Shown here: positions 723 to 61,008 of the stretch, in pieces
How the letters are laid out: every line of letters begins with the position of its first letter
Numbering within the stretch: position 1 is the stretch's first letter
Origin: an uncultured Candidatus Saccharibacteria bacterium
GTDB taxonomy: Bacteria > Patescibacteriota > Doudnabacteria > UBA920 > 2-02-FULL-46-11
DNA length: 64,000 nucleotides
Assembly (NCBI GenBank): GCA_964609765.1
Contig: CAZSSD010000001.1
Span: 45,282-109,281 of the forward strand
Direction: 5' to 3'
The notes under the pieces: model-generated
Told to the model about the DNA's origin: nothing
What the model saw: the letters and a program-made list of their open reading frames with translations, nothing else
Databases searched by the model: none
Translations under genes and position numbers: made by a program

Positions 723-778
723 AAAGAAGATAACGGATTAACTATTCTTAAATTCTTAAGAACATTGGAATAGGTAAG

Positions 779-1882: not shown

Positions 1883-1887
1883 ATATT

Positions 1888-2778: not shown

Positions 2779-2793
2779 TATGGATACGTATTT

Positions 2794-19259: not shown

Positions 19260-20777
19260 CTAATTAACCGAATATCTGGTTAGGTAAATATCTCCCCGGT
19301 AAAGAAATACATCGGGGATTTTTTGTTCTTCTATTTGCAGCCAATTGGCCGGCACCTCCGGCTTGCTTCCGCCAAAGCCGGTTGTCCAGAGAAGCCAGAT
19401 GGTTTCGCCGCTCTGACCATAAGTTTTGAGATCACCAATAAAGTCGCCGTCATTTAAAAGGGCAGTACCGGAAAAGTGCGGCAGTTGCTCGGTCTGGGTG
19501 ATGCCCTTAAGGTAAAGAAGGGGATATGCTGGGGGGTTGGCCGCGCCCCATTGCTGATAATAATATTTGTAGCTGAAGTAAATGAAGGTCGAAGCGACGA
19601 CTATTTTGTCGCTAGGCTGATAATTGCCAAACAAGTATTCAGAAGTGGCTCGCATACCGGGGTGATTTTTTACATCCAGTTGCTGCCATCTATCCGCAAA
19701 GAAAATGACACTGGCCAGTATAAGCAGGATGAGCAGGCCGGAGCCTAAGCGCTGCCATTTAATACTAGCCAGAGCGAGCGCGATGAAAGCTACGATAAAT
19801 ACGGCCGCAAAAATAAAATATCGATCAAGATAAAGAGCGGTCCGCAATGAAATAAGGATGGCCAGTACAAATGGGACAAAGCCCATCAGCACAAGCAGGA
19901 TTTTGTCGAGTTTGCGATAGCGCCAAAGATAAACCAAAAGCAGAAACACGAAAGCGACCGAAGCGACAATTAAAATATTATTGGCGATGCCCTGCCAACC
20001 ACTGATCAGTATTTTCCAAATTGTCGCGGGTACGCTCCAACGCTCCATTTCGGGAATCCAATAATTTTGCTCGACCTGACTGAACTGGCGCCAAAAAGTA
20101 GGCAGCCACCAGCTTGAGAGCACTCCGGCCAGAATAAATGACGCGGCCCATTTTAGATTTTGCCTGGCTAGAACGGGACGGTATTTTTTTAGCCACCAAA
20201 TTAAAATAAATAGGCCTTGGGCGGCAAGAGAAAAGAGTAAGAAATAATGTGTGAGCGCCGAGGCGCTGGTCAGTATGGCAAAGGCTAGCCACCATGGCCA
20301 CCGATTTGTGCGCAAAGCTTTAAGCATCACCCAGGTTCCCAACACTATTAAAAAAGTCCCCAGCGTGTACATGCGTGCTTCCAAAGAATATTGAATATGG
20401 AAGGCGTTAACGGCTAAAAGCGCGGCCGCGCCCCAGGCCAGTTTTTTACCTTCGTCCGCTGGATAATCTTTAAATATTTCCCTGACTAATACATAGAGCA
20501 GCCAGACGGTAGCCACGCCAAAAAAAACCGAAAAACCGCGCAAAGATTCCAAACTGTGTCCAAAGACGCTGGCCCAGACCCGTAACAACCAATAATAAAA
20601 AGGCGGATGCACATCCAAGGCAATGCGCTGCATCATTTCGCTAAAGGGCATGCGGATAAGCAAAGCCGAAAATGCCTCGTCGTGCCAAAGGGCGAGAGCG
20701 GTATAATCCCATAGCCTGACTACTAAAGCGGTCGCTAAGATAAAGGGCAGCAATAGTTTGTTAAGAAGGTTGTTCAT
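19260..20777 (-). CDS. GT39-family (PMT/ArnT-like) membrane glycosyltransferase
   Basis: Polytopic, with LWHDEAFSAL (DE motif in the first periplasmic loop), typical of family 39 / ArnT-type transferases. Confidence 0.75.
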   Translation of the reverse strand: MNNLLNKLLLPFILATALVVRLWDYTALALWHDEAFSALLIRMPFSEMMQRIALDVHPPFYYWLLRVWASVFGHSLESLRGFSVFFGVATVWLLYVLVREIFKDYPADEGKKLAWGAAALLAVNAFHIQYSLEARMYTLGTFLIVLGTWVMLKALRTNRWPWWLAFAILTSASALTHYFLLFSLAAQGLFILIWWLKKYRPVLARQNLKWAASFILAGVLSSWWLPTFWRQFSQVEQNYWIPEMERWSVPATIWKILISGWQGIANNILIVASVAFVFLLLVYLWRYRKLDKILLVLMGFVPFVLAILISLRTALYLDRYFIFAAVFIVAFIALALASIKWQRLGSGLLILLILASVIFFADRWQQLDVKNHPGMRATSEYLFGNYQPSDKIVVASTFIYFSYKYYYQQWGAANPPAYPLLYLKGITQTEQLPHFSGTALLNDGDFIGDLKTYGQSGETIWLLWTTGFGGSKPEVPANWLQIEEQKIPDVFLYRGDIYLTRYSVN

Positions 20778-22461
20778 AAATTTCCATAATTACTTCTCCA
20801 AAACGATTATATTCCCGTTTTATGAGTTTGGCGTCGGGATAATACCGTTGGAAGGCTTGGCTGTCATACAGACTCGACTGTGTAAAAACAACCTGATCGC
20901 CGGGAAGGAGCTGCAGGCCAAATCTTTCATGCTCGTAGCGTCCGATGCGTACCTGATCGGGTCCCTGCCAAAGACTGGCCGGGTCGACAACTTGATAGGG
21001 CTGTTTGGTTTGTGTGGTCAGATACTGGGGCGTTTGTTCGGAGAACCAATCGATAACCAAATAGGTTTTTTCTTTATGGGCGCGCTCATTTAAATACTGG
21101 CTGACTGCGGTCAGATCAGAACGAAAAGCGTAAGCGTAGGCCGGTGAGTTGCCGGCGACCCCGAAATAAAGGTTGATGCCATAAACTGCTTCGGCGCCTA
21201 ACAGCACGATTAGCAAAAGGGCGGCTAGTTTTTTTCTAATGGTCCAGCCCAGGCCTTGTTCGTGCGGAAAAGTGGTTAATATTTCCTCGATAAAAAGGGC
21301 GGCTATGACAAAGGTAATCGGAATCACGCCAATTAAACGCAGCCCATGGGGAATGCCTTCGGCCGTGAGTAATTCCGGGACCAGCATTAAGTAGAACCAG
21401 AGCGCCATGACGAAAAATGTCAATCTTTTTAAATTGATGGCATATGCTATTTTTTCGCGGTGTTTGCGGAAAGCTTGAACGAAAAATATAACCGCCTGCA
21501 CGGTGACGGCCAGCAGTCCGACTACAAAAAGCGGCGCGATCAGATAAGAAAGAAAGGGATACCCCGATACATTGTGCCGCCAGTTCAGATCTCCGCCGGT
21601 GATGAAGCCAAGGGCCGTCTTTTTAAAAACGACCAGAAAGGTGCCGATTAAATCGCCCTGGTTCAGTTCAGGGGAAAAAATGGAAACCTGGCCGGTGCGG
21701 CCGGCCAGCCATTCCGGTTTTCTTATAAAATAAAGGGCGAGCGGAACGAGAGCGGCGGCGAAACTGATGGTCCCGGCCAAAACCGCCGGCCAGTAGCGCC
21801 TCGCGAGCTGCCATTTTGGTTGGTTGCGCAGGTCGATAATTATAAGCATGACCAAAGCCAGCCCGACCAGGGGAATCATCATGCGGTATGAAATATAGGT
21901 ATAAAAACCCAATCCAAAAGCCAGGCCAGAAAAAACAGCGCAGGTCCAATACTCCAGACGCGATTTGGCTTGGGCAACCCGGGTCGCAAAGTAGAAAAAT
22001 AGTAAAGTAAAAAGCGGCGCCGTGTTGGCGCGAAATGCGGTGCGGCTCAAAGTGATATACCAGCCGCTTACGGCTGTCAGAAACGCGGCCACAAAGGCCA
22101 GGCGCGCGTTAAACCAACGCCGTATTAAAAGATAAGTCAAAAGTACAACCAGTACGCCCATGGTCGCAGACACTAAATGGTGGGCTAAAGGCGTCCGGCC
22201 CAAAATGGCGACGGCCGGCGTGAGCAAATAAAAAAAGAGCGCTTCACGCCCGTTGCCGCGTTCGTAGAACGGCTGCAGCTTGCCGTTTAAGATACTATTT
22301 ATATCGAGCCCATTGGCCGCTTCGTCCGGAAATAAGCCGCCGGGCAAACTGCCCAACCCGGTGTAACGCAGAATCGCCGCCACAGAAACCAGAATCAACA
22401 ATGGCCCGTAGTTTTTTAACCATTTTTTGCCTTCATGATAGGCCCCTTTTAAGTTTTCCAT
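20761..22461 (-). CDS. GT39-family (PMT/ArnT-like) membrane glycosyltransferase, tandem paralog
   Basis: Polytopic, with ...GLFPDEAANGLD... as the DE motif. Overlaps the downstream paralog by 17 nt. Confidence 0.75.
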   Translation of the reverse strand: MENLKGAYHEGKKWLKNYGPLLILVSVAAILRYTGLGSLPGGLFPDEAANGLDINSILNGKLQPFYERGNGREALFFYLLTPAVAILGRTPLAHHLVSATMGVLVVLLTYLLIRRWFNARLAFVAAFLTAVSGWYITLSRTAFRANTAPLFTLLFFYFATRVAQAKSRLEYWTCAVFSGLAFGLGFYTYISYRMMIPLVGLALVMLIIIDLRNQPKWQLARRYWPAVLAGTISFAAALVPLALYFIRKPEWLAGRTGQVSIFSPELNQGDLIGTFLVVFKKTALGFITGGDLNWRHNVSGYPFLSYLIAPLFVVGLLAVTVQAVIFFVQAFRKHREKIAYAINLKRLTFFVMALWFYLMLVPELLTAEGIPHGLRLIGVIPITFVIAALFIEEILTTFPHEQGLGWTIRKKLAALLLIVLLGAEAVYGINLYFGVAGNSPAYAYAFRSDLTAVSQYLNERAHKEKTYLVIDWFSEQTPQYLTTQTKQPYQVVDPASLWQGPDQVRIGRYEHERFGLQLLPGDQVVFTQSSLYDSQAFQRYYPDAKLIKREYNRFGEVIMEIYEQPS

Positions 22462-22496
22462 TTTTTGTTTAGAAGTGGTAGAATAGAGCTAAAGTT

Positions 22497-22898
22497 ATGC
22501 GAAATTTCAGTAATTTTAAAAGATTTTTATCTTTTGGGCACTGGGCGCGTTTAAAGCCCCGTTCGGCTTCGGTCAAAGACGGCATTATTTTTTGGGGCAC
22601 TTGTTTGAGTTTCCTCCTGATAATCATACTAATTGTTTTAATTGTCTTCAAGTTAAGGCCGTCGTCGGAATTAACATCCGTTCACTACAATATTTTAATT
22701 GGCGTAGATGAAGTGGCCAACGGTCTGCAAATATACGGTTTTGCTCTGGTGGCGGTCTTGGTGTTGATTTATAATTTAATGTTGGCTAAAAAGTTTTATC
22801 GTTTTGAACCGTTTGCCTCGTATTTATTAGTGATTGGTTCCGTGTTGGTTTCGGCTGTTTTGCTCGGGGCCGTAATATCGCTTACTCATTTGCCTTAA
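22497..22898 (+). CDS. small membrane protein (133 aa), hypothetical
   Basis: Three predicted TM helices. Divergent from the GT39 pair and upstream of the GT2 gene. Confidence 0.4.
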   Translation: MRNFSNFKRFLSFGHWARLKPRSASVKDGIIFWGTCLSFLLIIILIVLIVFKLRPSSELTSVHYNILIGVDEVANGLQIYGFALVAVLVLIYNLMLAKKFYRFEPFASYLLVIGSVLVSAVLLGAVISLTHLP

Positions 22899-22946
22899 TT
22901 TGTTTGTGAAGTATCAATAAAGCGGCCGGGCAGGGCCTTTTGTATT

Positions 22947-24638
22947 ATGTCGGCACCACTCATGCATCAAAGTCGTAATCCACACCGCCAACGCTCCGCC
23001 CGAGAGAGGGTTTTTGAGATTATACCGGCGGCATTAGTCTGGTTGAGTTTGGGTTTGGCGGTTTATTTTTCCTTTACACATCCGGCTTGGGCCGCCGTCT
23101 ATATTATTGTCTTTGACGTTTATTGGGTTTTAAAGGCCATTAATACCACCCTGCATCTTTTGTCGTCCTATAACCATTACCAACATGATCTAACGATGGA
23201 TTGGTTTGCGGGGGTAAAAATGTTGAGGCACAAAGAGGACCTGATCCGTGTTTTAACAGAGCGGAAAGCCCAAGCGCGGCGAGCCTGGCGCGGTCTGATT
23301 AGCCGCGAAATCGAAAGAGTAAACGCCGCGCAAATCAAACGGGACTATGATCAGATTTACCACGTTGTCCTGTTCCCCTTTGTTGATGAAAGCTTTGAAC
23401 TTTTACGGACAAGCGTTGAAGCCATACGTCAGAGCAATTACCGGCTTGATCGCGTGATTATCCTGCTGGCGGCAGAAGAGCGAGCGGCGGCACAGGCCCA
23501 AGCTACGGCCCAAAAATTGCATGATGCTTATCAAGATGTTTTTCGCGGCTTTTTAGTAAGCACGCATCCCGACAACTTGCCGGGCGAAATCAGGGGTAAA
23601 AGCGCCAATGCCAGTTTTGCCACAGAACATGTTTTGTTACCATGGCTCGCGCAAAACAATATCCCGCTCGAAAATGTCATAATGAGCAATTTAGATTCGG
23701 ACACGGTGGTCCACAGGCAGTATTTGGCCAGAGTGACTTATGAATGGCTTTTAGCGGCTGATCCTCATCGCCGCAGTTACCAGCCAATCACCTTGTATAA
23801 CAACAATATGTGGGACTCGCCGGCCTTGGTGCGGGTAGTGGCGGTGGCTAACTCTTTCTGGCAATTTATGGAATCTTCGCGGCCCGACCGCTTGCGCACT
23901 TTTTCGAGCCACAGCATGAGCCTGAAGACTTTGCGCGAGGTTGGTTTTTGGAAAAAAGAAATCGTCAACGAGGATGGTTTTATTTTTTGGCAATGTTACC
24001 TGCATTTTAACGGCCAGTATAGCACGGTGCCGTTATTTATTCCGGTGTCCATGGACACTTGCGTGGCGGAAGACTACAAGCAGACCTTGATTAATCAGTA
24101 CAAGCAAAAGCGGCGCTGGGCATATAATGTTGAATATTGGCCGCATCTGGTGCCAAAATTGTTGGGCAATAAAAAGATTCCTTTGCCTGACCGGCTTTAT
24201 AAATTTTGGCAGTATGTTGAAGGTAATTATAACTGGGCTACTGCCAGTATTGTCATTGCCACCATGGGCTTTTTACCGTCTTTCTTGGGCGACAATTTCA
24301 CGGGTACGGTTTTGGGCTACAATTTGCCCTATGCCACGCGCTTAATGATGAACATCGCCCTTGTTTTCTTGATTGCCTCGGTGTACGTGAATATGATTTT
24401 GCTGCCGCCCCGGCCTGCGAAATACAAATGGACGCGCACGGCGGCTATGTACGCGCAATGGGTTTTAGTGCCTTTTATCTCAATCATCTGGGGCTCAATT
24501 CCTTCTTTAGAAGCCCAGACGAGGCTGGCTTTGGGGAAATATATGGAATTTTGGGTGACACCGAAGCCGCGATCCGTGATCGAAAAATCCGAAATTCGAA
24601 TATCGAAACCCGAAACTGCCTTAAATTTAAAAAATTAA
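22947..24638 (+). CDS. processive family-2 glycosyltransferase (cellulose/chitin-synthase-like)
   Basis: N- and C-terminal TM helices; DxD (NLDSDTV), an ED-like motif (VNEDGF) and QKRRW (QxxRW). Confidence 0.65.
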   Translation: MSAPLMHQSRNPHRQRSARERVFEIIPAALVWLSLGLAVYFSFTHPAWAAVYIIVFDVYWVLKAINTTLHLLSSYNHYQHDLTMDWFAGVKMLRHKEDLIRVLTERKAQARRAWRGLISREIERVNAAQIKRDYDQIYHVVLFPFVDESFELLRTSVEAIRQSNYRLDRVIILLAAEERAAAQAQATAQKLHDAYQDVFRGFLVSTHPDNLPGEIRGKSANASFATEHVLLPWLAQNNIPLENVIMSNLDSDTVVHRQYLARVTYEWLLAADPHRRSYQPITLYNNNMWDSPALVRVVAVANSFWQFMESSRPDRLRTFSSHSMSLKTLREVGFWKKEIVNEDGFIFWQCYLHFNGQYSTVPLFIPVSMDTCVAEDYKQTLINQYKQKRRWAYNVEYWPHLVPKLLGNKKIPLPDRLYKFWQYVEGNYNWATASIVIATMGFLPSFLGDNFTGTVLGYNLPYATRLMMNIALVFLIASVYVNMILLPPRPAKYKWTRTAAMYAQWVLVPFISIIWGSIPSLEAQTRLALGKYMEFWVTPKPRSVIEKSEIRISKPETALNLKN

Positions 24639-24667
24639 GTTTCTTGAACTTGTTTTATGCTTCGCCT

Positions 24668-24687
24668 GCCTGCCGGCAGGCAGGGAT
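24668..24687. promoter_or_regulatory. perfect 20-bp palindrome CCTGCCTGCCGGCAGGCAGG (terminator or operator)
   Basis: 10-bp perfect inverted repeat with no loop, lying between the GT2 gene and the GT4 gene. Confidence 0.4.
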
Positions 24688-24707
24688 TTAGAATTACGAA
24701 TTTAAAT

Positions 24708-25772
24708 ATGATAATTTTCTTTTGGATATTTCTGCTGGCGTTAGCGGTTTCCGTTTTGGCCACCGCCATCGTTCGAAAAATTTCTATCAAAAAAGGAGTT
24801 TTCGATTTGCCTAATGTGGAGCCCGCCCGGCGGGCGCACGATAAACCCAAACCGCTGCTGGGCGGCCTGGGTTTAATTCTCACTTTTGACGTTCTAACCG
24901 CACTGCTTTATTTTTTATTGCCCCTCTTGAAAGATAATATTCCTTTGGTAAGTATGCTTGCCATTTGGGCCGGCAGCCTCATTCTTGGTTTGGGCGGCGC
25001 CATCGATGACATTAAGAACCTAAAGCCGGGCCAACAGTTGTTTTTTACAATTCTGGCCGTACTGGCCGTGGTTGTTTCGGGCATGGGCGTGCCTCATATC
25101 ACTAATCCCTTAGGCGGCAAAATACCCCTTACCGGTCCGGCCATTGGCGGTATTGGGCTGGTTAGCGCCGCCTTTGTCTTTTTCTGGATTTTGGGCATGA
25201 TTTATACGACTAAATTTTTAGATGGCTTAGACGGGCTCGCTTCAAGCATTAGTTTGGTAGCCACTCTTTCTTTGTTTGCCCTATCGTTTACGCCGCAGGT
25301 TATGCAACCTTATACGGCCGTGCTGGCCGCGGTGTTGGCCGGCAGCCTGCTCGGGTTTTTGATATTTAACTGGTACCCATCGAAAATATTTTTGGGCGAG
25401 GCCGGCAGTACGTTCCTCGGTTTTATTTTGGGAATTCTGGCCATTATTGCCGGCGGAAAAGTGGCCACAGCCTTCTTGGTTATGGGTGTGCCCATTTTGG
25501 ATGTGGCTTGGGTAATTTTGCGCCGAATTTATACCGGCCAATCTCCGTTTAAGGCCGATCGCCTGCATTTGCATTTCCGTCTTTTAGATCTCGGCTTAAG
25601 CCACCGGCAAACCGTGGCCGTCTTTGTATTGTTTTCGGCTGCATTTGGCGGCACGGCCGTACTTTTGCAATCCTTTGGCAAGTTTATATCCCTTTTGATA
25701 TTACTACTTGTCATGCTGGCTTTCGGTCTGTTCGTGGTTTACTTAACCCGCCGCCGACGCTTGACCCCGTAA
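24708..25772 (+). CDS. GT4-family polyprenyl-phosphate HexNAc-1-phosphate transferase (WecA/TagO-like), not MraY
   Basis: DDIKN... and ...FNWYPSKIFLGEAGSTFLGF... are MraY/WecA superfamily motifs. It lacks the MraY HHH motif (has LHLHFR). Start placed at ATG 24708, downstream of the palindrome. Confidence 0.7.
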   Translation: MIIFFWIFLLALAVSVLATAIVRKISIKKGVFDLPNVEPARRAHDKPKPLLGGLGLILTFDVLTALLYFLLPLLKDNIPLVSMLAIWAGSLILGLGGAIDDIKNLKPGQQLFFTILAVLAVVVSGMGVPHITNPLGGKIPLTGPAIGGIGLVSAAFVFFWILGMIYTTKFLDGLDGLASSISLVATLSLFALSFTPQVMQPYTAVLAAVLAGSLLGFLIFNWYPSKIFLGEAGSTFLGFILGILAIIAGGKVATAFLVMGVPILDVAWVILRRIYTGQSPFKADRLHLHFRLLDLGLSHRQTVAVFVLFSAAFGGTAVLLQSFGKFISLLILLLVMLAFGLFVVYLTRRRRLTP

Positions 25773-26382: not shown

Positions 26383-26905
26383 GGACATTAAGTTCTGGTT
26401 TGGGTAGCCTTAACGTCTAAGTCCAACTAGCGGACTCGCACGGAGGATCGGCCGATCTACCATGGCCTCCGTATGGAAAGCTTGAGGACCCTTAGGTGTT
26501 AACCCACTCCCAACTAACGTCAGCCAGGCCTGCTCACCTCGTTCCGATCGCAAGGTGCGTGGTAAGCGGGTTCTGCAGTTAGGGCGGAGCGCGGAGTACG
26601 AGGCGCGAAACCGGGGAAGAACCAAATCTTGGGCGGGAAACAAACCAAACTCGTCGCTGTGGGAGGTTTGCGATCAAACAAGAAATGGTTCAACGTTGGC
26701 GTAGCCCACAGCCGGTAACCAGTCTTTTGGGGGGACTGGGGATGGCGGCAGGCGTTGGTAAAGCGAGCAGTGCTGGAACGGAGAGATGCTGAATGGGTTC
26801 GGGAGTTGTTCGCCACTAGTGTGCGGCAACTTACCTTGAGCGGCTCGGTCGATCCGGTAGGGCATTGTAAGGTTTGCGAATTGCTTGCGTGGAGCCCAAA
26901 CCAGA
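26383..26905 (+). ncRNA. unclassified GC-rich structured ncRNA candidate (~520 nt)
   Basis: Promoter-proximal, GC-rich, and carries only overlapping junk ORFs on both strands. Many local helices. Weak CR-IV/CR-V-like strings (GGTGCGTGGTAAGCGGG; CACAGCCGGTAACC). Confidence 0.3.
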
Positions 26906-26909
26906 TATT

Positions 26910-27015
26910 GGGGCTGGACCTCGGGTGTGAGGCACGGGGGAATTCATCCTCCCCCCGTGGCGCTGTTCGCGGTCTTTGCTCGCGACAGGGTCGGGTTCGA
27001 TTCCCGTCAGCTCCA
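26910..27015 (+). ncRNA. atypical 106-nt tRNA-like element with a tmRNA/tRNA-Ala-type acceptor stem
   Basis: 5' GGGGCTG and 3' CAGCTCC-A acceptor strands with a G3:U70 pair. T-arm CGGG-TTCGATT-CCCG. 4-nt D-loop (CCTCG-GGTG-TGAGG). An 8-bp hairpin CACGGGGG/CCCCCGTG with an 11-nt loop containing UUCAU. A long extra arm (CTGTTCGCG...CGCGACAG). Confidence 0.4.
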
Positions 27016-27017
27016 TT

Positions 27018-27110
27018 GGAGAGGTAGCCAAGCGGCCAAAGGCGCCGGGGTGTTACTCCGGTGATCGGGTCAATACCTGGTCTGCGTGGGTTCGAATCCC
27101 ACCCTCTCCA
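27018..27110 (+). tRNA. class II (long variable arm) tRNA, Tyr/Ser-like D-arm; the anticodon loop reads gUGUUAc (apparent GUU)
   Basis: Acceptor GGAGAGG/CCTCTCC plus discriminator A. D-arm GCC-AAGCGGCCAAA-GGC. Anticodon stem CCGGG/TCCGG. 24-nt variable arm. T-arm GTGGG-TTCGAAT-CCCAC. No encoded CCA. Confidence 0.75.
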
Positions 27111-27285
27111 TGAAGTACTGGGCAGTGGTCTCCCTTCCGTTGCCTAGAGTTGGAGGAGTAATTCCTTTTCGGAGCGCAGTGCCTCGCGTGGTGACGGGTG
27201 AAACCCGGGACTCCCAAGCCTAGAGCTTGGGAATAATACCGGGGAGTAAGTCCCGATCCAGCGAGCCTGCCCCTCCGGGCACAAA

Positions 27286-30914: not shown

Positions 30915-33584
30915 ATGAGAAAGTTTAGGCCGGGAGCCGGAGACGGAAAAGACGAACAAGACGAAGGAGTTCGCTTTTGGGATCCGGAAGGCAAGCTGAA
31001 AAAAGTAACACCGGGCCGAATACGGGAAAAAGAGGGCAAAGAACCAAGCAGGCCTATTTTTATTAGAGGGTCCATGGAGAAGCCGGAATTTTTTCCCTAT
31101 GGCTACGACCAGCCATGGTTATCAGAACGCACCGCCGGCCTAGACAAGCTAACAGTACCCGAGCTTGAAGTCGAATTGAGCAAACTTGAACTCCTTTTGG
31201 AAGGCCTTAACCGCGGTGAAGCCCAAAGAAAGGGCAGTTTCCGAGAGCAATTATTGCTGGCTGAACGGATAAGCGCGATTAAGGCATTATTGGCAACCGC
31301 TGATAGAATCAAGCCCATGGCCGCGGAAAGTAAGGTTGCAGATACGTCATCTGTTGTTGAGCAGGTTTTCGAGCATCCAGAAGTTATTGAACAAGAGCCC
31401 ATACTCGTCGAGCTTATTAGAAAACATGTAATTCAAGACCTTAAGGAATTAAGCCAAAAGGAGCTCGATATGGAGGCCACGGCGATGGTTCAGGAGATAA
31501 GGGCCTTGGGTCTGCGTAAAAAAATTGAACCGCGGTTAGAGCAGGCCTACGAGTGGGTCTTGGCTGAAAAGGAGAACCGCCTCAAGGCCAACAGGCTTGA
31601 GGGTGATGATTTTACGCCTCCGGTTGATGCCACAGAGCGTTTTGTGATCCCGGCCGCATATTTGAGCAATCCTGATTTGGCGTTGTATCCCGCCGCCTTG
31701 GTTCGCGAATCAGACCAAGCCGAATTGGAGGGCTTGCGGGACCATGTTGCCAGTCAGATTAAAGATGCGGAAGAATGGCCGGACTCTAAGAAAAAAAGGG
31801 CAATGTTTGCCATACTCAAGAGGCGCCTAGAACAACTGGAATCTGAAATACAAAGTCGCCTGCAGCGACTGGAATCTCAAAAACAAAGGCGTGATGCCAA
31901 AATAAGAGCTGAAGAAGAAAAGTATTGGCACGGGCCAAAAATCCTATATGATGGCCGTGAAAAAGAACTGACTCTGGAAGAGCAAGTTGCCTGGTTGGCC
32001 AGCGAGATTAGGCATGCGAGCACCCGGATGCTGAAAACCAAAGCACAAGTGGAGCCGCGCGAGCGATACATTTCCCAACTTAAAAAAGCACTTATCAGAA
32101 AACAAGAAGAGTTGGTTGTAACCAAACGATATGTGGGCGAACCAAATGGCGAGCCTGCGGCCGAGCCCGCGGGGGAAGCGGGCGAGGTGGCTAGACCCGC
32201 GGCCATAGATTGGCGCGCTGACTTAAGCGACGAAATCGAGCGGGGTACCATCAATCTCCCTTCTGCGCAGGAGTTGGAGGGCTCCACGCCCGATCAGCTC
32301 AACGGCATTGTCACTAAAGTATTGCCCTCTATTCGAAGGCGGCTGACCCGCGATCATCAGGAGGACCCGGCCGAACTGCGTAGAAAATTAGATGCGGTTA
32401 CGGCCTATGAGGAGCAGGTTTTAGCGCCTGTTTTGCAAGTGGTTCAGGACCGAGCCAACCAAGCTAAAAGCAAGCCGGCGACCGAAGCGCGGGCTGAAAA
32501 TGACGCTACTCCCGTTACTGAAAAACCTACTCCTGCCAGCCGAGGGCGCGGCCGGCCTCGAAAGGAAGTCCAAGCAGAAGATCAAAGCACCGTTAGACTT
32601 CGCCAAAAACTCGCTGATCTGAATACAGAAATCGAAACCAGAGAGCGCCAGAAGGCAGAACTGGTAGAGCGGCAGAAGCGGCTGACCGCAGCTTTTGATA
32701 ATTTAAAGGAGTTGAGAGACTTTATAGATACAATCGAACTCGGCCAGGGCGAACCTACCGAGAAAGAAACGCAAGCGGTTGACCAACTTGTTCGCAAAGC
32801 CTTTGCCGCGCTTAACAGCCTGGTTCTGGTAGAATATACATCACTTGACTACCGCAAAAAAATAGAAAAAGGCAAAAAGGAAATTCTAAAGTTAAGGTTG
32901 GAACCGGGCAAGTTAATAGATGTTGATTTTGTCAAAATGGAAGCTCGCGCCGAAAACGGCGATTTATTGGATACACTATTCGTTTCCGCGGACGGACAAC
33001 TGGGGCTCAACAGACCAAAGCAAAAGCCTATCCGGGAGGTGGAAGCCATGCGTATTATTTTGGGCGATCTTAGGGCGATCGCATTGAATTTTAGAGATTT
33101 GGTTGGCAGTGAAAGGGTTCAAGTTCGTAGGGAACTTGGTTATTTGGGGGATAAGGTGCTTGCACCACTTTATGCGGCGCGCGATAAATTTATCGGCATG
33201 CTCGCTACCCGAAGACCCGAGCAGGCAGCGGCAGGAGAAAAAGGTAAAAGTGGGCGACCGGGTAAGCGCGAGGGCAGAAAAGAAGTTCCGCCTCGTTCCG
33301 CGCAAGCTGTTCCGGCCGAGACTCCTCCAGCACCCGAAGCTCGAGCCAGCGGCAATGAAACCGATGCCGAGAAAATCCGCAAAAGCTTCGCTTCGTTATT
33401 TGCGGTAGCGGCGCGGCGAGCCGGTGGGGTGGGCAAAACTTTTAGCATCCAAGGGCCGCAAGGTGTTATTAGTGGTGAAATGTTGGACATGCATAGTATT
33501 TCGGTGGCGCGTAAAACTCCCGAAGGCCAAGAGGTCGAAAAAGGCATCATTACCAACGACGGGCACTTTATTCCCAGCAAGTAA
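30915..33584 (+). CDS. giant hypothetical protein (889 aa), highly charged coiled-coil with an AT-hook-like GRGRPRK
   Basis: Extended-TGn -10 box TGGTATAAT at 30855. K/E/R-rich heptad-like segments and an RGRGRPRK motif. First gene of a co-directional cluster. Confidence 0.6.
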   Translation: MRKFRPGAGDGKDEQDEGVRFWDPEGKLKKVTPGRIREKEGKEPSRPIFIRGSMEKPEFFPYGYDQPWLSERTAGLDKLTVPELEVELSKLELLLEGLNRGEAQRKGSFREQLLLAERISAIKALLATADRIKPMAAESKVADTSSVVEQVFEHPEVIEQEPILVELIRKHVIQDLKELSQKELDMEATAMVQEIRALGLRKKIEPRLEQAYEWVLAEKENRLKANRLEGDDFTPPVDATERFVIPAAYLSNPDLALYPAALVRESDQAELEGLRDHVASQIKDAEEWPDSKKKRAMFAILKRRLEQLESEIQSRLQRLESQKQRRDAKIRAEEEKYWHGPKILYDGREKELTLEEQVAWLASEIRHASTRMLKTKAQVEPRERYISQLKKALIRKQEELVVTKRYVGEPNGEPAAEPAGEAGEVARPAAIDWRADLSDEIERGTINLPSAQELEGSTPDQLNGIVTKVLPSIRRRLTRDHQEDPAELRRKLDAVTAYEEQVLAPVLQVVQDRANQAKSKPATEARAENDATPVTEKPTPASRGRGRPRKEVQAEDQSTVRLRQKLADLNTEIETRERQKAELVERQKRLTAAFDNLKELRDFIDTIELGQGEPTEKETQAVDQLVRKAFAALNSLVLVEYTSLDYRKKIEKGKKEILKLRLEPGKLIDVDFVKMEARAENGDLLDTLFVSADGQLGLNRPKQKPIREVEAMRIILGDLRAIALNFRDLVGSERVQVRRELGYLGDKVLAPLYAARDKFIGMLATRRPEQAAAGEKGKSGRPGKREGRKEVPPRSAQAVPAETPPAPEARASGNETDAEKIRKSFASLFAVAARRAGGVGKTFSIQGPQGVISGEMLDMHSISVARKTPEGQEVEKGIITNDGHFIPSK

Positions 33585-33598
33585 TTTACCTACTCAAA

Positions 33599-36199
33599 AT
33601 GTCAGATCCTATTCAACCGGGTTCGCCAATTGATCCTACTTCAGCCGAGACAGGCAGTGAGCTTTCTGACGCAGCTCATCTAGTCTCTAGTTTGCGTCAA
33701 AACATTGAAGAGGTTTCGGCTATGGTTGCCGGCGTTTCCGCAAAGAAAGCGCCTTTGGCTGATTTTTTCCCCATTTGGCAGCGTGTTAAGCAGATACGTG
33801 AACAATTTAAACAGTTACCTGATGTCCCGCTTTGGCAGGACGAACAAACGCAATTATACGAGGCCTATGAAGCCATTCGTTATGGCCGCTATCAAGAATT
33901 TTTACGCGGTGCACTTGCTGACGCCCTTCAAGAGCTAAATCCCGATTGGCCTGAATCAGAAGTAAATCGCTACCGCAACACAATGTCTTTGCCAGAAATG
34001 CAGGATAAAGTTCTCAATGCTGCAAGACTGGTACGTAGATTGAACGAGAATTTAGATTTTCTCCGGGGCGTACTATCTCACGCACCCGAGCTTAAAATTT
34101 TGGAAAATATGGAGACTTTGCTCGCGGCCCAAAGCGAAATTGAAGACATTATAGATCAGTTGCAAAGCACTCTTGAAAGCGGCACCACGCCAATCAATAC
34201 GGGCTTAGTGGCGGAGTTGCGCGAGCGCGTTAATAATGTAAAAAAAGACCTCGCAGATTTAAACCGAAAAGCATCAGAGGAGGGTCAAGTTCAGCCTGCT
34301 GCAGAGTCGGCGCCAGTGGAAACAGAACAGCCAGTTCCGGCTGTAGTTACTGTCGAGCCGTCTGCGGCAACGCCGTCGGCGGAGCGGGAAGCCATTGAAA
34401 TAACCGGTTCGCTGGCTAAAAAAATGGAAAATATTTACGCCAACTTGCAGGACAAGGGTGTTAATGTTCCATATGGGTTATACCATTTTGAATTTAACGG
34501 GACCGATGTAGCTTTCTATGTAACTGCTGATTTTGAGGGTCAGGGCCGGTATGTGGGAATAACATCTACCGAAAAAGGACGCTCGGTACAGGTTGATTTC
34601 CGGCTCTATCTTGATTTGGGCAAAGTTGAATTACGTAAAGGAAGCGACAAACAAATTGTAACCGGCGAGCCGGCCATGGCTACGCTCGAGGACCTATTGG
34701 TTAAGCTGGAAAGCGGTACGGGTAAAAAATTTATAAGCGAACCGGCCCGGACTGTGGCGGAAACCCAAGAGCCTTCGCCCACGGATTTGGACGCAGCTTT
34801 GCTACACGAGCAGGAGGAACCGGCTATGCCCGAGGCCGCGGTAACAGAGGCAAGAGAAATTGGGCGGCCGCAGCCTGCTGAAATTGCCGCATCGGGATGG
34901 GAGAATCTTGTTATGCCGTCAACTTCGCTGCGGGCGCCGCTCAATGTTATAGAGCGATCGGACGGCACCCATGCTATCTACATCAGAGCAGGCGCGGAAA
35001 TAGACCACATAGCTGTCGGCGGCATCAGACATAATTTATTTCCTGAAGCCGAGGCTTATGAAAGATTAGAAACAATTGAACCGGCCATAGTGCGCATTCA
35101 GCCCACCACAACCGCCGGCGAAGTCACCTATAGCGTGGTCAAGCAAGGCGTGGTCAAGCAAGCTGGAGAAGCTGAACTAAGACCGGCCTCTCCCTCTGGC
35201 CTGGCCGCGCAACCCGCTTTGGGCGCAGAAATAATTGCGGAAGCGCCGACAACCGAGATGGAACCGGCGCCGGTTGAGGCGACTCCGACCCCGCAAGCCC
35301 CACCTGCTCCCGAGGAACGCGAAGAAGATGTAGCGGCAGTTCCTGATGCTGCCCAACCCGAACCAGAACCCCAACCAGAACCAGAACCTATTAGACCGGA
35401 ACGGCAGCAAACTTTTGATATGGCGGAATTTGCCGCGCTGGCGGCTGAATTCGCGCGGGAGGCGGATAAAGAAGATTATTACACCTGGGAAATGGGTCTT
35501 GCCCGCTTACCCCAAGAGCTTATCGACAGTTCAGAAGAGAGATTAAAACGAATCAGAGTGATTATTGATGAGTTTGGGCATTTAATTGGGCTAGAGGCAA
35601 AAGTTAAAGATGATTTAGGTTACGAGCTTCGTATTTCTGTTCAAAAAAGCGCTTTCAGTAGTTCGGCAAAAGACGGCGTGCGGGTAGTTTTAAACTTTGC
35701 CGACAAGGATATGAAAAGCATAACCTGGAATTTTGTCGACGATGGCTATATTTCTTTTAGCGGATGGTTGGGTAAAGACCCTTTACCTGATTTTGCCAGC
35801 AAACACAATCTGACTAGTGTCCAAAAGGATGCTCTGGCTGTTTCTGAATTTGAAAGATTGATTATGCCCCTAAAGGGGCGGCTTGAGGAAGTTGATAAAC
35901 AAAAACAGATAGCCGCCGCCGAAGCAGAACTAGAAAAAGAAAGAGAAAAAGAAAGAGACGACTATGAGCCGATAACTAGGGAGCAGAGATTAGTAAATCA
36001 AACGAAGTATAATAGGTTAGCGCCGCTTGCGGCTAAAGCTAAAAACGGCAGACTTGAACTTCCTAATGGACAAGTTTTGGAATTCTTGCCCGAGGCGGGC
36101 GAGAGCAGGCACAGAAATATTTTAGTAATTAACGAGGCAGATGGGACCTATGTAGTTATTGACGAAGAAGGCCATCGTCTGGCTATTGATTTAGAATGA
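33599..36199 (+). CDS. giant hypothetical protein (866 aa) with a PEPEPQPEPEP low-complexity linker
   Basis: 15-nt gap after the previous gene. Acidic, with a Pro/Glu repeat encoded by a CCAGAA tandem repeat at about 35346-35400. Confidence 0.6.
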   Translation: MSDPIQPGSPIDPTSAETGSELSDAAHLVSSLRQNIEEVSAMVAGVSAKKAPLADFFPIWQRVKQIREQFKQLPDVPLWQDEQTQLYEAYEAIRYGRYQEFLRGALADALQELNPDWPESEVNRYRNTMSLPEMQDKVLNAARLVRRLNENLDFLRGVLSHAPELKILENMETLLAAQSEIEDIIDQLQSTLESGTTPINTGLVAELRERVNNVKKDLADLNRKASEEGQVQPAAESAPVETEQPVPAVVTVEPSAATPSAEREAIEITGSLAKKMENIYANLQDKGVNVPYGLYHFEFNGTDVAFYVTADFEGQGRYVGITSTEKGRSVQVDFRLYLDLGKVELRKGSDKQIVTGEPAMATLEDLLVKLESGTGKKFISEPARTVAETQEPSPTDLDAALLHEQEEPAMPEAAVTEAREIGRPQPAEIAASGWENLVMPSTSLRAPLNVIERSDGTHAIYIRAGAEIDHIAVGGIRHNLFPEAEAYERLETIEPAIVRIQPTTTAGEVTYSVVKQGVVKQAGEAELRPASPSGLAAQPALGAEIIAEAPTTEMEPAPVEATPTPQAPPAPEEREEDVAAVPDAAQPEPEPQPEPEPIRPERQQTFDMAEFAALAAEFAREADKEDYYTWEMGLARLPQELIDSSEERLKRIRVIIDEFGHLIGLEAKVKDDLGYELRISVQKSAFSSSAKDGVRVVLNFADKDMKSITWNFVDDGYISFSGWLGKDPLPDFASKHNLTSVQKDALAVSEFERLIMPLKGRLEEVDKQKQIAAAEAELEKEREKERDDYEPITREQRLVNQTKYNRLAPLAAKAKNGRLELPNGQVLEFLPEAGESRHRNILVINEADGTYVVIDEEGHRLAIDLE

Positions 36200-39100
36200 G
36201 CAGTCACAACCAAGATTCCGAATTGGATGAATTAGAAAGAATGGCGCGCGAAGCGTTGCGAGCTCAAGGCGTGGACCCGGATGCTGCGTCGTCTGACGCT
36301 GAAGTTCCTTTATCGCCAAGCGAGCCGGCAAAGCCGCGCCGAAGGCGCGCAAGTGGCGCTGCGGCGGACGCCTTAGTGGCGCGGGCAGGGACCAGTTCGG
36401 GTTTATCCGAACCAGCGGTTCCGCCTGTACCCGAGGCAGCCCCGATGCCGCAAGCAGCGCCAAAGCGTAGGAGGGCTAGTGGTCAGGAAGCGGACGATCT
36501 GGTCAGCAGGGCTGGCGCTCCTACCGCCCAGCCGCCGAGAGTGAGAGTAGCAGAAACCAAGTCGGAGCCAACAATACCCGAGCCCGTGCCGGTCGCTCCC
36601 ATACCGCGTATAGAAAGTCCGTGGCTTGAGCCCGCGGCCGCCAAACCGCCGGAGCAAAAGACGGCCGGGGATGAAGAAATTATTGATCGCGAAACAATGG
36701 AGGAGATGCGCGGGCGCATTGAATCGGACCTCTCAACCCTGTCTCAAATGTCCGAGCCCGAGCTTGATCGGGTAAAGATTTCTATCGAGTCTTTTCAGAG
36801 ATTTACGGCTGATAAGGATTTACAGACAATTGAGCTGCATTGTTTTATAGCGGACGCGCTTTCACGGGTGGAAAGCGCGCGCCTGAAATTGAGAAATGGC
36901 GGAGATAAGAGATTGCCAGCGGAACAGGAGCCAACCAGGCCAGAAACGGAACTGGAAAGAGAATTGCGAGGCGTCATGGCTGAAGTTTTGTCTGAAGTCG
37001 GTTTAAGGCCAGATGAGGTCAAGGCCATAGATTTTGGAAAAATCTGGGCCTACCTTAAGAAAGTTGGGGGAACAAAAATAGATCTTAAAGATATGCTGAT
37101 TGCCGGCGGTCCGGCCATCGTTGTTGCGGGTATTTTGCGCTGGACATTACGGACTAAACTGGGCTGGGCACCGGAAACAGCCGGCGCCGTGGTGGGCGGC
37201 CTGTTCGGCTTGGCCAGGGGTATAAGCGCCGAAGATAGGCGCCAGCAGACGCGCCGGACAAAATATCAGGAAATTCTGCACGAGTTTACGGCCACGGGCG
37301 GATTTGACGGCTTGTGGGCAATGGCTGATAAGGATATTTTAAAGGCCATGACTACGGTTTTGGCCATGCGCAAGACAGTGGAAAAGGCCGAGGGCGAGCT
37401 TGACCCGGCACGTTATCAGGAATTGACGGATTTAATCACCAAGCAGGAGATTTTACTATTGCGCCGGAAAGAGTTGCGGGAGAGCCAAGGCGTGGAACGC
37501 TTGGTTAAATTTATGGCGGTGACGCGCGGTGTAAACCTTGATGGCTTGCAAAGCCAGCGTAAATTACTGCTGCACCGTTTTATTCTAGACCGGACTGTCG
37601 GCGCTGAAGTAAAAATAGCGGCCGGACAGCGGCGGGATTATAAAGCCGTGGCCGGCAAGGCCGTGGCCGGTGCGGCCATTGGCTGGAGCATGGCGGCTTT
37701 GACTGATTTGCTCTTTGATTGGGCAAGAGTCCGATTTTTTAGCGGTGCCCCGGCCGAAGCGGCGCCGGAGGGTGCCGGACCGAGTGAAGCACCAACCGGA
37801 GCGGAAGGAGCGCCTGCCGAGCCAACCACACCTCCGGCTGAAACAACTGACACGTCAACTGCGCCCACTCCCACAGAGCAGCCGCCAGCGCCGAAACCAG
37901 ACATAAAAGCAGCACCGGCGCCCGCCGCGGCTGAACCGGCTGAACCTACTACGCCCGCTGCCGGCGACTTAGAGCGTGCTTTAACGGCCGCGTCGGACCG
38001 AGCCCAAGACATAGTCAAAGAAGCGCGCGAAGCGGCCGCCGCCGCGCGCGCGGCCATGGCCAATGCGCCGAGCGAACAAGCTCGTACCGCTGCTGAACTC
38101 GCGGCCCAAAAAGCGGAGGCCGCCGCCCAAGCCGCCGAGCGAGCCGCGGCTGAAGTAGGCAGGGCCACTACGCGCGAAGCGGCGCAAAAGGCGCTTCGGG
38201 AAGTGGCCGGCAAAGTGGCGGAAGCGCAAATGGAGCAGCAAGCGGCCGAGGCGGCCACGGCCGCAGGCAAGGCCATTGAAATTGCGGGCGAAAAGATTGT
38301 GATACCCGGGACGCTCATGGATGTCACGAGCGAGGCCGGCAAAAACGGCATCTCCTATCTGGTGCGGGATCAGCTTGAATATATTGCCGACCAAGTTAAG
38401 GGTAATGCGGAAGTGTTGCAAAAGATATTCGGTCCGAGCATTGATGCCGCGGATGTGGCCGAGCGATCGGCGGACTTTAGGCAGGCTTTGCGGGAAAAAA
38501 TGTTTGCGGTTTTGGAAAACAATGAGGTGGACGGTAAAACCATTCTTAAGTTAGATGAGGCAGGGAAGGTAATTTCTGAAGTACGTTTAGGCGCCGCTGA
38601 TGTTAATACCGTGTCCATAGAATACGACCCCTCTAATCCGAGTGGCTTTGCGGTGAAGGTCGAACCGCCGACCTATGTTGAACCTGTTGCGCCGGCCCAA
38701 CCTCTCGCGCCGCCAGCAGAAGCGGCGGCGTCACCGGCCGCCTGGCCGAGGAAATTTTCGCTTGAAGACTTACTGAAGTTCAGAGAGGCCGTTAATTCGC
38801 CCAATTTCCCGGAGTCGGTAGATAAATTGGGCGGGCATTTTAATCTTCAAGAGCCGTCCTTGCCGCCGGACGGAGTTCCGCAGCCGCCTGATTATTTGCG
38901 CGAGGATTTCTGGCAGGGCCACGCGCCAACTAAAATGGGTCTTTTATTCGAGGCGCCCACGACAGCCATGGCCGCGGCGCGCCTGTGGTTTTTAGGAAGT
39001 ATGGTCAGCGCCGGACTTTACGGCGCGCATGAGGCCACTCAAGCCGTCGTCTCCCGAGTCTCGTCAAAGACTGAAAAAACTCCCGGGGCCGGCCTTGCCC

Positions 39101-39501: not shown

Positions 39502-39503
39502 AA

Positions 39504-39818
39504 TTGGACAAAAAAATGGACACACCCAAACAAATTGCGGACAAATTATTCAAGGAACTCAATTTGCAGAACCAGCCGCCCAAACGCCAACAGGAAGTGC
39601 TGGAAGAGCTGGTTGAACATTTTTCGCAGGTCATCATTACAACCATGCTGCGCCAAGTTAATGACGAGCAGTTTGCCGATTTGGAAAAGGCGCTCAACTC
39701 GACCGATTGGCAAAATGAGGTTTTGCGCATTGCCGGGGAGGTTCCCGGCCTGGCCGAAGCCATAGAAAACAACATTCAGAGCGAATATGATATGATGAAG
39801 ACGGTTATGAACTCTTAA
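39504..39818 (+). CDS. small acidic helical hypothetical protein (104 aa)
   Basis: Tightly packed between giant gene 3 and the next ORF. TTG at 39504 or ATG at 39516. Confidence 0.45.
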   Translation: MDKKMDTPKQIADKLFKELNLQNQPPKRQQEVLEELVEHFSQVIITTMLRQVNDEQFADLEKALNSTDWQNEVLRIAGEVPGLAEAIENNIQSEYDMMKTVMNS

Positions 39819-39824
39819 AACAAA

Positions 39825-40487: not shown

Positions 40488-40489
40488 AT

Positions 40490-60985: not shown

Positions 60986-61008
60986 GTTATAATTTAGTGG
61001 CTTAAAAT

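Follow-up and report, generated by a model that had tools for sequence, protein, structure and literature searches.

In BcsA, CrdS, BgsA and RiGT2 the gating loop is characterised by the motif FxVTxK (PMC6821405, PMC10374906). Synthase systems commonly need an inner-membrane co-subunit such as BcsB, Alg44, PelE or PgaD, and PNAG production requires PgaD (PMC8892547). A class of pathways that is both synthase-dependent and lipid-primed has also been described (PMC2841628). Here we compare with these systems a locus of five genes, A to E, which lies in a 64,000-nucleotide stretch of DNA (the window) from a Doudnabacteria (Patescibacteria/CPR) MAG. With moderate confidence we read this locus as encoding a two-subunit synthase for an envelope glycan that is probably lipid-primed and decorated extracellularly by GT-C enzymes.

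Gene layout

Two GT-C glycosyltransferases of the PMT_2 family are encoded on the (-) strand: A (19260-20777, 505 aa) and B (20761-22461, 566 aa, GT-C_A fold), the latter overlapping the start of A by 17 nt. The (+) strand carries the small three-TM membrane protein C (22497-22898, 133 aa), the divergent GT2 synthase D (22947-24638, 563 aa) and E (24657-25772, 371 aa), a polyprenyl-phosphate HexNAc-1-phosphate transferase of the WecA/TagO type. An earlier note had claimed these five open reading frames; every one was found where it had been placed, and the family-level calls (PMT_2 twice, GT2, Glycos_transf_4) agree with Pfam. Directly upstream of C and overlapping the start of B, a consensus scan matched a promoter-like pattern on the (+) strand (TTTCCA, 18 nt, TG-n-TAGAAT; 22455-22484). 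As a pattern match it is a candidate promoter of the C-D-E operon; the region holds 19 such sites, while 11.1 ± 3.5 are expected from shuffles.

The GT2 enzyme D

D matches Pfam Glyco_trans_2_3 (1e-10) and no NCBIfam family. Its two N-terminal TM helices are followed by a GT-A domain, then by interface and TM helices and finally by a C-terminal gating-loop motif (FWVTPK, 535-540), such that the GT-A domain is placed between N- and C-terminal TM helices as in BcsA, CrdS, BgsA and RiGT2. The motifs (E148, E176-E177, K218-SAN, D250-S-D252, E342-D343 and Q387KRRW391) follow the order of the BcsA group, i.e. (D/E), KAG-like, DxD, TED, QxxRW and, about 125-150 residues further on, FxVTxK; unlike in that group, EE(R) takes the place of the first 'DD'. 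The DxD, ED and QKRRW motifs quoted in the earlier note are indeed present and vary little or not at all among 32 close homologues, and across 118 clusters (50% identity) D250xD252, E342-D343 and Q387KRRW391 are 95-99% conserved. The GT2 call was to be given up if proper alignment removed these motifs. In the alignment to E. coli BcsA all catalytic motifs are kept and in register (PFVDES with PTYNED, AEER with DDGG, GKSAN with AKAGN, DSD with DCD, NED with TED, QKRRW with QRIRW), so that the call stands.

Family-wide, [F/Y]xVTxK is found 7-30 residues from the C-terminus, with the K present in 114/118 and the T in 98/118 clusters. Since D stops right after this motif, it differs from BcsA in having neither the last two TM helices (TM7-8) nor the PilZ domain. 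D resembles solved synthases only remotely (10-14% identity, TM-score about 0.4), and HMMER searches against PDB chains, even from a profile, gave no match. In the structural model the C-terminal 30 residues, including the gating-loop motif, have a pLDDT below 50; by the positive-inside rule this end would face the cytoplasm. From fold and motifs we infer that D is a membrane-integrated, probably processive and exporting beta-glycan synthase of the BcsA/HAS kind. Its description in the earlier note as an 'elongation' enzyme fits poorly: rather than a soluble-type enzyme acting on a lipid-linked oligosaccharide, D has the architecture of a self-polymerising, self-exporting synthase.

That description belonged to a scheme, which we consider unlikely, where proteins or pilins are glycosylated by way of a lipid-linked oligosaccharide built step by step. 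There, E would form Und-PP-HexNAc, a non-processive D resembling PcManGT or archaeal Agl enzymes would add the next sugar(s), the glycan would be flipped, and the GT-C enzymes would glycosylate surface proteins as an oligosaccharyl- or O-mannosyl-transferase. The tight coupling of E to D agrees with this scheme, but D retains the QxxRW, TED and FxVTxK motifs typical of processive synthases. PcManGT from Pyrobaculum calidifontis (PDB 6YV7) has 346 residues in contrast to the 563 of D, 313 of them aligning at 10% identity, and we know of no partner gene of PcManGT equivalent to C.

Alternatively, D could be a processive glycolipid synthase that provides a glycosyl-diacylglycerol or similar anchor, on which the GT-C enzymes would decorate a lipoteichoic-acid-like polymer. 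GT2/GT21 lipid glycosyltransferases share the D,D,D,(Q/R)xxRW signature, PF13632 includes lipid glycosyltransferases as well, and by Kyte-Doolittle analysis D has only three strongly hydrophobic TM segments. Moreover, in some species YfhO-family genes lie inside the operon; YfhO glycosylates lipoteichoic acid in Bacillus, and Patescibacteria have a reduced lipid metabolism and may rely on modified membrane lipids. We nevertheless regard a glycolipid product as very improbable: D combines FxVTxK with interface and TM helices like those of BcsA/HAS (alignment over 375 residues), which are features of polymer-translocating synthases. To our knowledge neither this gating loop nor such helices have been reported for lipid glycosyltransferases, and no dedicated three-TM partner is known for glycolipid synthases.

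The small membrane protein C

C has three hydrophobic segments and, from hydropathy and charge, a predicted topology with the N-terminus inside and the C-terminus outside; a conserved motif, [A/P]L[H/R/K]YN[V/I]xxG, falls into the first outside loop. Searches of Pfam and NCBIfam with C gave no match. The earlier note had treated this gene as incidental. It is instead the constant partner of the GT2 gene: C lies directly upstream of D in 69/75 loci, where the C stop codon often overlaps the D start codon. At distant loci, where D is only 32-45% identical, a same-strand, multi-TM open reading frame of 80-200 aa precedes D in 63 of 70 cases, compared to 15 of 146 for other genes (Fisher p 1e-31). 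Profile comparison showed that the small proteins of close and distant loci are homologous (94% probability, E 1.4e-7). We therefore propose C as a co-subunit of the synthase.

Unlike cellulose synthase systems, the locus has no BcsB but a three-TM protein of 120-130 aa encoded upstream of the synthase, and BcsC- or BcsZ-type genes are absent from it. A membrane GT2 and a small integral membrane protein in one operon are also found in PgaC-PgaD and IcaA-IcaD. From these pairs the locus differs in several respects: C and D have no detected sequence relationship to them (no NCBIfam match), the small gene is located upstream rather than downstream, C has three predicted TM helices while PgaD and IcaD have two, there is no sign of c-di-GMP control, and D carries the glucan-synthase motif FxVTxK. 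In the mechanism we favour, C would either supply the membrane helices missing from D or serve as a 'co-polymerase' subunit in the manner of PgaD, IcaD or the BcsB anchor. Together, C and D would use a UDP-sugar to build a beta-linked polymer that is threaded through the membrane during growth.

The transferase E

E matches PF00953 (Glycos_transf_4) at 2.5e-31 and scores 105 bits with the TIGR02380 wecA model (cutoff 326) compared to 60 bits with mraY. Its motifs, D117-D118, K186xLDGxDGL194, F245xGxxGS251 and D301xxHxH306, are conserved at ≥95% in 66 orthologues. A separate MraY-type gene (61009-62073, 162 bits with the mraY model) is present in the window. The WecA-like assignment thus holds in the sense of WecA/TagO-type and not MraY. 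The accompanying label 'GT4' is right if it denotes Pfam Glycos_transf_4, the MraY/WecA family, and wrong as CAZy GT4.

The genetic coupling of a WecA-type initiating enzyme to a synthase-type GT2 resembles that of synthase-dependent, lipid-primed polymers, for which the Salmonella O:54 O-antigen, made by WecA and a processive synthase, is an example. Accordingly modelled, the chain would be started on, or finally attached to, a polyprenyl-diphosphate-HexNAc anchor, following the logic of synthase-dependent O-antigen and wall-polymer linkage units. C, D and E are also contiguous or overlapping in L087, L090, L093, L094, L106, L142 and L147, none of which has Doudnabacteria flanks. E stays joined to C-D in two or more flank contexts and follows D within one operon in Doudnabacteria and in one or more further lineages. 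In contrast to the lipid-primed systems, in most Patescibacteria lineages no E adjoins C-D (of about 84 distant loci, only about 10 have E beside D), such that lipid priming may not be general.

The GT-C enzymes A and B

A (Pfam PMT_2, 7e-14) has about 9-11 TM segments and an extracytoplasmic C-terminal domain of ~140 aa; B (PMT_2, 3e-10) combines about 11 TM helices with a C-terminal domain of 130 aa. The DE motifs quoted in the earlier note recur unchanged in the orthologues as WHDEAFSAL (31-39) in A and PGGLFPDEAANGLD (40-53) in B and are placed in the first predicted outside loop; DVHPPxYY (55-62) in A and TAEGIPHGLR (366-375) in B are likewise invariant. The two genes, classed as GT39 in the earlier note, had been called tandem paralogs. 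They are adjacent, but paralogy overstates their relation: BLASTP between them is not significant (E 0.8), and only profile-profile comparison links them, as remote homologues (97.6% probability, E 3e-12, 19% identity over the N-terminal ~240 columns). No sequence-level relative of either was found in the PDB, for A even with a profile. In structural comparisons, AglB, PMT and ArnT score essentially alike; A and B are GT-C fold PMT_2 proteins that structure does not distinguish from STT3, PMT or ArnT.

These data bear on protein glycosylation in both directions. The sole NCBIfam matches, Agl23 for A and archaeo_STT3 for B, are archaeal N-glycosylation models, and type IV pilin-like genes occur in the window (52608-54479). 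However, the scores lie far under the cutoffs (Agl23 28.8 of 126 bits, archaeo_STT3 21.8 of 450 bits, and Pfam STT3 for B 22.5 of 24.5 bits), AglB does not stand out structurally from PMT and ArnT, and the ~130-aa C-terminal domain of B is too small for a full STT3-type soluble domain. WWDYG is the motif typical of STT3. Furthermore, no flippase is found within the cluster, and the giant proteins at 30915-39501, put forward as APT-rich acceptors, are poor candidates: they are rich in E, A, L and R, have hydrophilic N-termini and contain no signal peptide or TM segment.

For the envelope glycan that we favour, the GT-C enzymes would decorate or branch the exported polymer using polyprenyl-phosphate sugar donors, modelled on YfhO/GtlB (teichoic acids) and Aft/Emb (arabinogalactan). 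Like these enzymes, ArnT (lipid A) and GtrC (O-antigen), A and B are multi-TM GT-C proteins whose first outside loop carries an acidic motif. As in such decoration systems, loci differ in their number of GT-C genes, some species have YfhO-family members, and a GtrA-family gene is present in the genome, elsewhere in the window (44003-44482, (+) strand, 159 aa, Pfam GtrA_DPMS_TM 2.5e-25). The encoded small membrane protein is a candidate flippase for the donors and may be linked to the cluster. Unlike in those systems, the locus has no GtrB/CsbB/DPMS-type donor synthase; no GtrB/DPMS-type polyprenyl-phosphate sugar synthase was found within the window, so the GT-C donors are not accounted for there.

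Conservation of the locus

A, B and E are kept around C-D in 47 of the 50 full-flank loci from Doudnabacteria species (A in 49), such that the five-gene arrangement is no chance juxtaposition. The entire neighbourhood is, however, syntenic across the class (SerRS, FtsQ-like, A, B, C, D, E, L21, RecR, DnaB). Adjacency by itself is therefore weak evidence, and the position of A and B could be inherited rather than functional. The genes could accordingly be neighbours by descent, C-D making a free exopolysaccharide, E priming an unrelated wall polymer, and A and B glycosylating proteins or lipids independently. The mixture of unrelated housekeeping genes in the block agrees with this, as does the rarity of E beside D at distant loci. 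GT-C genes adjoin the synthase only in Doudnabacteria, with none next to D in about 84 distant loci; that C-D mostly occurs without nearby E or GT-C also speaks against protein glycosylation.

We still judge mere inheritance improbable. The C-D-E junctions overlap or abut in lineages with quite different flanks, and in six Doudnabacteria species an extra GT-C gene (YfhO-type in L033, L046, L050 and L075; PMT_2 in L058 and L082) has entered the operon between D and E, same-strand and tightly joined to its neighbours. Such insertions are hard to account for without a shared pathway and support a link of the GT-C enzymes to the C-D-E operon. The earlier note's sequence of initiation, elongation and transfer to protein is thus upheld in its gene content and only partly as a pathway.

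The median identity of D across 80 species is 53.9%, compared to 54.5% for L21 and above the values for RecR and SerRS. With conservation at about the level of a ribosomal protein, D behaves like a core function. The C-D pair is a core module found across ultra-small Patescibacteria; E and the two ArnT-like transferases seem to have been added to it in particular lineages.

Organization of the cluster

The cluster comprises five genes in two divergent groups. Genes A (19260-20777, 505 aa) and B (20761-22461, 566 aa) are located on the minus strand and both match the Pfam family PMT_2, i.e. they belong to the GT-C glycosyltransferases. The plus strand carries the small three-helix membrane protein C (22497-22898, 133 aa) that has no Pfam match, the GT2 enzyme D (22947-24638, 563 aa; Glyco_trans_2_3) and the WecA-type transferase E (24657-25772, 371 aa; Glycos_transf_4). 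The five ORFs coincide exactly with the coordinates given in the earlier note. The window belongs to a Doudnabacteria (Patescibacteria/CPR) genome. The nearest relative of D, with 71% identity, was found in Candidatus Doudnabacteria RIFCSPHIGHO2_02_FULL_46_11, and the named matches of D belong to Doudnabacteria or Patescibacteria. No defence-system match was obtained with PADLOC for any of the five proteins.

The cluster is flanked by housekeeping genes: MreB, MreC, PBP2, GreA, a LysRS-type gene, SerRS and an FtsQ-like gene upstream, and L21, tRNA-Asn, RecR, DnaB and CysRS downstream. Between L21 and tRNA-Asn there is a GC-rich (~0.55) region of about 617 nt (26400-27016) without a long ORF. 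Its predicted fold is very stable (-249 kcal/mol) and carries a tRNA-like cloverleaf and T-arm at the 3' end. Neither Rfam nor ARAGORN (tRNA, tmRNA) reported anything for this region, and blastn gave no match in 80 related loci. The adjacent tRNA-Asn (GTT; 27017-27111) has a length of 95 nt versus 73 nt for the corresponding tRNA in the closest relative, which suggests an insertion or intron. At the start of the window five tandem ORFs (36-5704; 228, 367, 296, 471 and 501 aa) have a low GC content of 0.37-0.41 versus about 0.49 elsewhere. The swivelling phosphohistidine domain PF00391 (PEP-utilizers mobile domain) forms the end of four of them, the 296-aa ORF has no Pfam match; the usual kinase domains are absent from all five.

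Fold and motifs of the GT2 enzyme D

Searching the PDB by sequence with D alone or with a 32-sequence D profile did not return any chain. We compared an AlphaFold2 model of D (pLDDT 80, pTM 0.83) with PDB structures. The polyprenyl-phosphate GT2s reached scores of only 11-13 (DPMS 13.4, ArnC 11.5, GtrB 11.4), and a Foldseek search of the model against all PDB chains provided the same ranking. The three-component Gtr-like systems (GtrB/DPMS/ArnC) combine a PF00535-type GT2 of GtrB fold with a small GtrA-family partner, a description that D and its neighbour C do not fit.

Alignment of D to E. coli BcsA with hhalign gave a weak score, because one side was a single sequence, yet every motif was in register (D/BcsA: PFVDES/PTYNED, AEER/DDGG, GKSAN/AKAGN, DSD/DCD, NED/TED and QKRRW/QRIRW). 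D thus carries the BcsA-type catalytic signature (D, DxD, TED, QxxRW), with EE in place of the first DD. The earlier note had held that the GT2 keeps its catalytic motifs and had set their loss on alignment beforehand as the refuting test; since all motifs were in register, this test was not triggered and the claim held.

A further motif, FWVTPK at residues 535-540 of D, corresponds to FxVTxK, which marks the gating loop of beta-glucan synthases in both bacteria and plants (PMC6821405, PMC10374906). In the family, represented by 118 clusters at 50% identity, the motif [F/Y]xVTxK retained its K in 114 and its T in 98 clusters, and it was always located 7-30 residues from the C-terminus and ~150 residues past QxxRW. 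BcsA-type enzymes span the membrane with eight helices, carry PilZ at the C-terminus and are partnered by BcsB. D differs from this layout: behind two N-terminal TM helices come the GT domain, an interface helix with QxxRW and another two or three helices, while TM7-8 and PilZ are missing. The protein ends 23 residues beyond FWVTPK, had neither a PilZ nor an NCBIfam match, and no BcsB-like gene was present nearby. With the gating-loop motif so close to its end, D therefore resembles a BcsA that is cut off just past the gating loop. Judged from its sequence and predicted model, D looks like a very divergent synthase-type enzyme. We consider it improbable that D is a glycolipid or LTA-anchor synthase.

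Breadth and conservation of the D family

The D family is compact. A scan of 1.84 billion representative proteins gave 2338 matches at E<=1e-3, of which only 454 reached E<=1e-30. Its distant members mostly fall under the Pfam GT2 thresholds, as do most members outside Doudnabacteria. The D sequences of Doudnabacteria share a median identity of 53.9%, compared to 54.5% for L21, 50.5% for RecR, 35.9% for SerRS and 63.5% for DnaB. D evolves like a core gene, with a conservation about that of ribosomal protein L21.

The small protein C as partner of D

C has three hydrophobic segments and a basic N-terminus; a conserved [A/P]L[H/R/K]YN[V/I]xxG motif lies in the predicted first outside loop. In 69 of 75 loci C immediately precedes D, and its stop codon often overlaps the start codon of D. 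With a profile built from remote homologues of D, which share 32-45% identity with D of the window, we retrieved 80 metagenome loci, among them 70 with usable upstream sequence. As upstream partner we counted an ORF on the same strand that encodes 80-200 aa, has two or more TM segments and lies at -60 to +140 nt. Such a small multi-TM ORF preceded D in 63 of these 70 loci but only 15 of 146 other genes of the same loci (Fisher p 1e-31). The small proteins of close and distant loci matched each other in register in a profile comparison (94% probability, E 1.4e-7). Seven homologues of the C family had no Pfam match even at E<=5.

The four or five helices of D and the three of C add up to roughly the eight of BcsA. 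When we checked 150 family representatives for natural C-D fusions, only one (P0183) was extended at its N-terminus, by a stretch with three additional hydrophobic segments in which the C motif was not recognisable. Homology to the PNAG synthases, of D to PgaC/IcaA and of C to PgaD/IcaD, was not found (no NCBIfam match at E<=0.01), such that the likeness, as judged via NCBIfam models, is one of organisation only. We infer that C would be a stoichiometric co-subunit of D. As a rule, such synthases depend on a small co-polymerase in the inner membrane, for example BcsB, Alg44, PelE or PgaD (PMC8892547).

The WecA-type transferase E

E contains a PNPT superfamily domain (PF00953, 2.5e-31), and its Mg/sugar-phosphate motifs (DD, DGxDGL, GxxGS, DxxHxH) are at least 95% conserved in 66 orthologues. 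On the WecA model TIGR02380 it scored 105 bits, below the equivalog cutoff of 326 above which GlcNAc specificity would be implied. E was rejected as the MraY of the cell: it reached only 60 bits on mraY, and a separate MraY-type gene (61009-62073; TIGR00445, 162 bits) directly follows a D-Ala-D-Ala carboxypeptidase (PF00768), the pair spanning 60002-62073. The window therefore holds two PNPT paralogues.

In seven distant loci (L087, L090, L093, L094, L106, L142, L147) C, D and E remain next to one another, with their ends abutting or overlapping. E is followed there by genes for a zinc-ribbon protein and for ribosomal L25, instead of L21, RecR and DnaB. In most lineages C-D occurs alone, usually beside an NrdR-like gene; the recurrent downstream neighbour of D in distant loci resembles NrdR by its zinc ribbon and WRRR motif, judged by eye. 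The NrdR-like, zinc-ribbon and L25 neighbours were rejected as pathway genes; none of them is one. An alternative is that the genes of the cluster have separate functions and are neighbours by synteny alone. The contiguity of C-D-E despite entirely different flanks argues for a functional link, and we regard synteny alone as an unlikely explanation. Since most lineages have C-D alone, lipid priming is plausible, yet not as a general feature.

The GT-C proteins A and B

The assignment of A and B to GT39, proposed earlier, stood in part. In its favour, the GT39 Asp-Glu motif of the first extracytoplasmic loop is present just past TM1, where A reads WHDEA and B reads FPDEA, each without variation among orthologues. 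At E<=0.01, however, A and B matched only PF13231 (PMT_2) in Pfam and not the GT39 PMT model PF02366, to which some A/B orthologues showed weak matches while B showed none. No Pfam match to MIR domains, a luminal-loop feature of PMTs, was obtained for A or B; the outside loop in the model of B comprises about 60 residues. "GT39" is the name that NCBI gives to such PMT_2 proteins. Both share the conserved multi-TM core of the GT-C_A fold superfamily (ArnT, PMT, STT3, ALG). The STT3/AglB/PglB models stayed below their cutoffs (PF02516, 22.5 bits, cutoff 24.5; TIGR04154, 21.8, cutoff 450), and the C-terminal domain of B, with only about 130 aa, is too small for a full STT3-type soluble domain. 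No relative of A or B was found in the PDB by single-sequence or profile searches.

The two proteins had been described as adjacent paralogs in tandem. A recent tandem duplication was rejected, as BLASTP between A and B was not significant. Their profiles are related over the N-terminal ~240 columns at 19% identity, and by this comparison A and B are ancient relatives.

A, B and E were retained at 47 of 50 Doudnabacteria loci with full flanks. In about 84 distant loci no GT-C gene was detected beside D with our own HMMs, which have limited sensitivity. In six Doudnabacteria species a further GT-C gene, in the same orientation and tightly joined to its neighbours, is inserted between D and E. 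Its product belongs to the YfhO family in L033, L046, L050 and L075 (~806 aa) and to PMT_2 in L058 and L082 (545 aa). That GT-C genes were repeatedly recruited to the operon is the strongest argument for an action of the GT-C enzymes on the same product.

A GtrA/DPMS-TM family gene (44003-44482; PF04138, 2.5e-25) follows an unannotated 225-aa ORF (43316-43993) and overlaps the called start of DnaX. Its product could be a donor flippase; a GtrB/DPMS-type donor synthase was not seen in the window. In one distant relative (L086, 11751-15135) an Arn-like trio of a formyltransferase, a PF00535 GT2 and a UDP-glucose dehydrogenase lies 2-6 kb from D, with a further PNPT close by, a hint that some Patescibacteria may have aminosugar donors of the polyprenyl-phosphate type.

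Acceptors and proposed mechanism

The earlier note read the cluster as a stepwise lipid-linked protein-glycosylation pathway. The giant APT-rich proteins (30915-39501) that it offered as acceptor candidates were rejected, as they lack a signal peptide and have a coiled-coil-like composition. The only obvious exported glycosylation candidates in the window are a type IV pilin-like protein (N_methyl motif) and a GspK-like minor pseudopilin (52608-54479), 27 kb from the cluster. Overall we find this pathway doubtful.

The region 30915-43048 holds three giant E/A/L/R-rich ORFs (889, 866 and 1101 aa) without Pfam match or signal peptide, behind which lie an ORF of 220 aa and a coupling ATPase of the TrwB/VirD4 kind (852 aa). 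It may be a secretion or DNA-transfer module; in related Doudnabacteria an LCAT-domain protein takes its place downstream of DnaB.

The mechanism that we propose instead has gene content, folds, motifs and linkage statistics as its observed part. C and D would jointly act as a synthase, building a chain from a UDP-sugar and exporting it; a polyprenyl-PP-HexNAc supplied by E would serve as primer or anchor. Outside the cell, A and B as well as the additional GT-C enzymes would attach sugars using polyprenyl-phosphate donors. We hold this mechanism as a whole with moderate confidence.

Discussion

Each gene of the cluster is assigned to a known superfamily. The C-D unit as a whole combines a minimal BcsA-like GT2 that stops at its gating loop with a three-TM protein as obligatory partner, and it is conserved across Patescibacteria. 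As such it was not found in Pfam, NCBIfam, the PDB or the searchable literature, and we found no paper on the D family in the literature on glycosyltransferases, cellulose synthase or the cell envelope of Patescibacteria/CPR.

To our knowledge almost nothing is known about the envelope chemistry of Patescibacteria, even though it is through their surface that the few members in culture live as episymbionts. A broader reading, which we put forward tentatively, is that the minimal GT2 and the channel-completing three-helix protein constitute a hitherto unmodelled, housekeeping-grade two-polypeptide synthase of the ultra-small Patescibacteria for a major, possibly essential envelope glycopolymer, which in Doudnabacteria would be lipid-primed by the WecA-type enzyme and elaborated extracellularly by GT-C enzymes that vary in their set. 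If true, the Doudnabacteria polymer would be the CPR counterpart of teichoic acids or arabinogalactan. An L21-like conservation in genomes of less than 1 Mb, scores mostly under the Pfam thresholds outside Doudnabacteria and the constant pairing with an uncharacterised three-TM protein would together point to a core surface polymer that annotation pipelines have overlooked. As a naturally 'split', minimal cellulose/hyaluronan synthase machine, the C-D unit could reveal the membrane elements that are required for coupled polymerisation and export.
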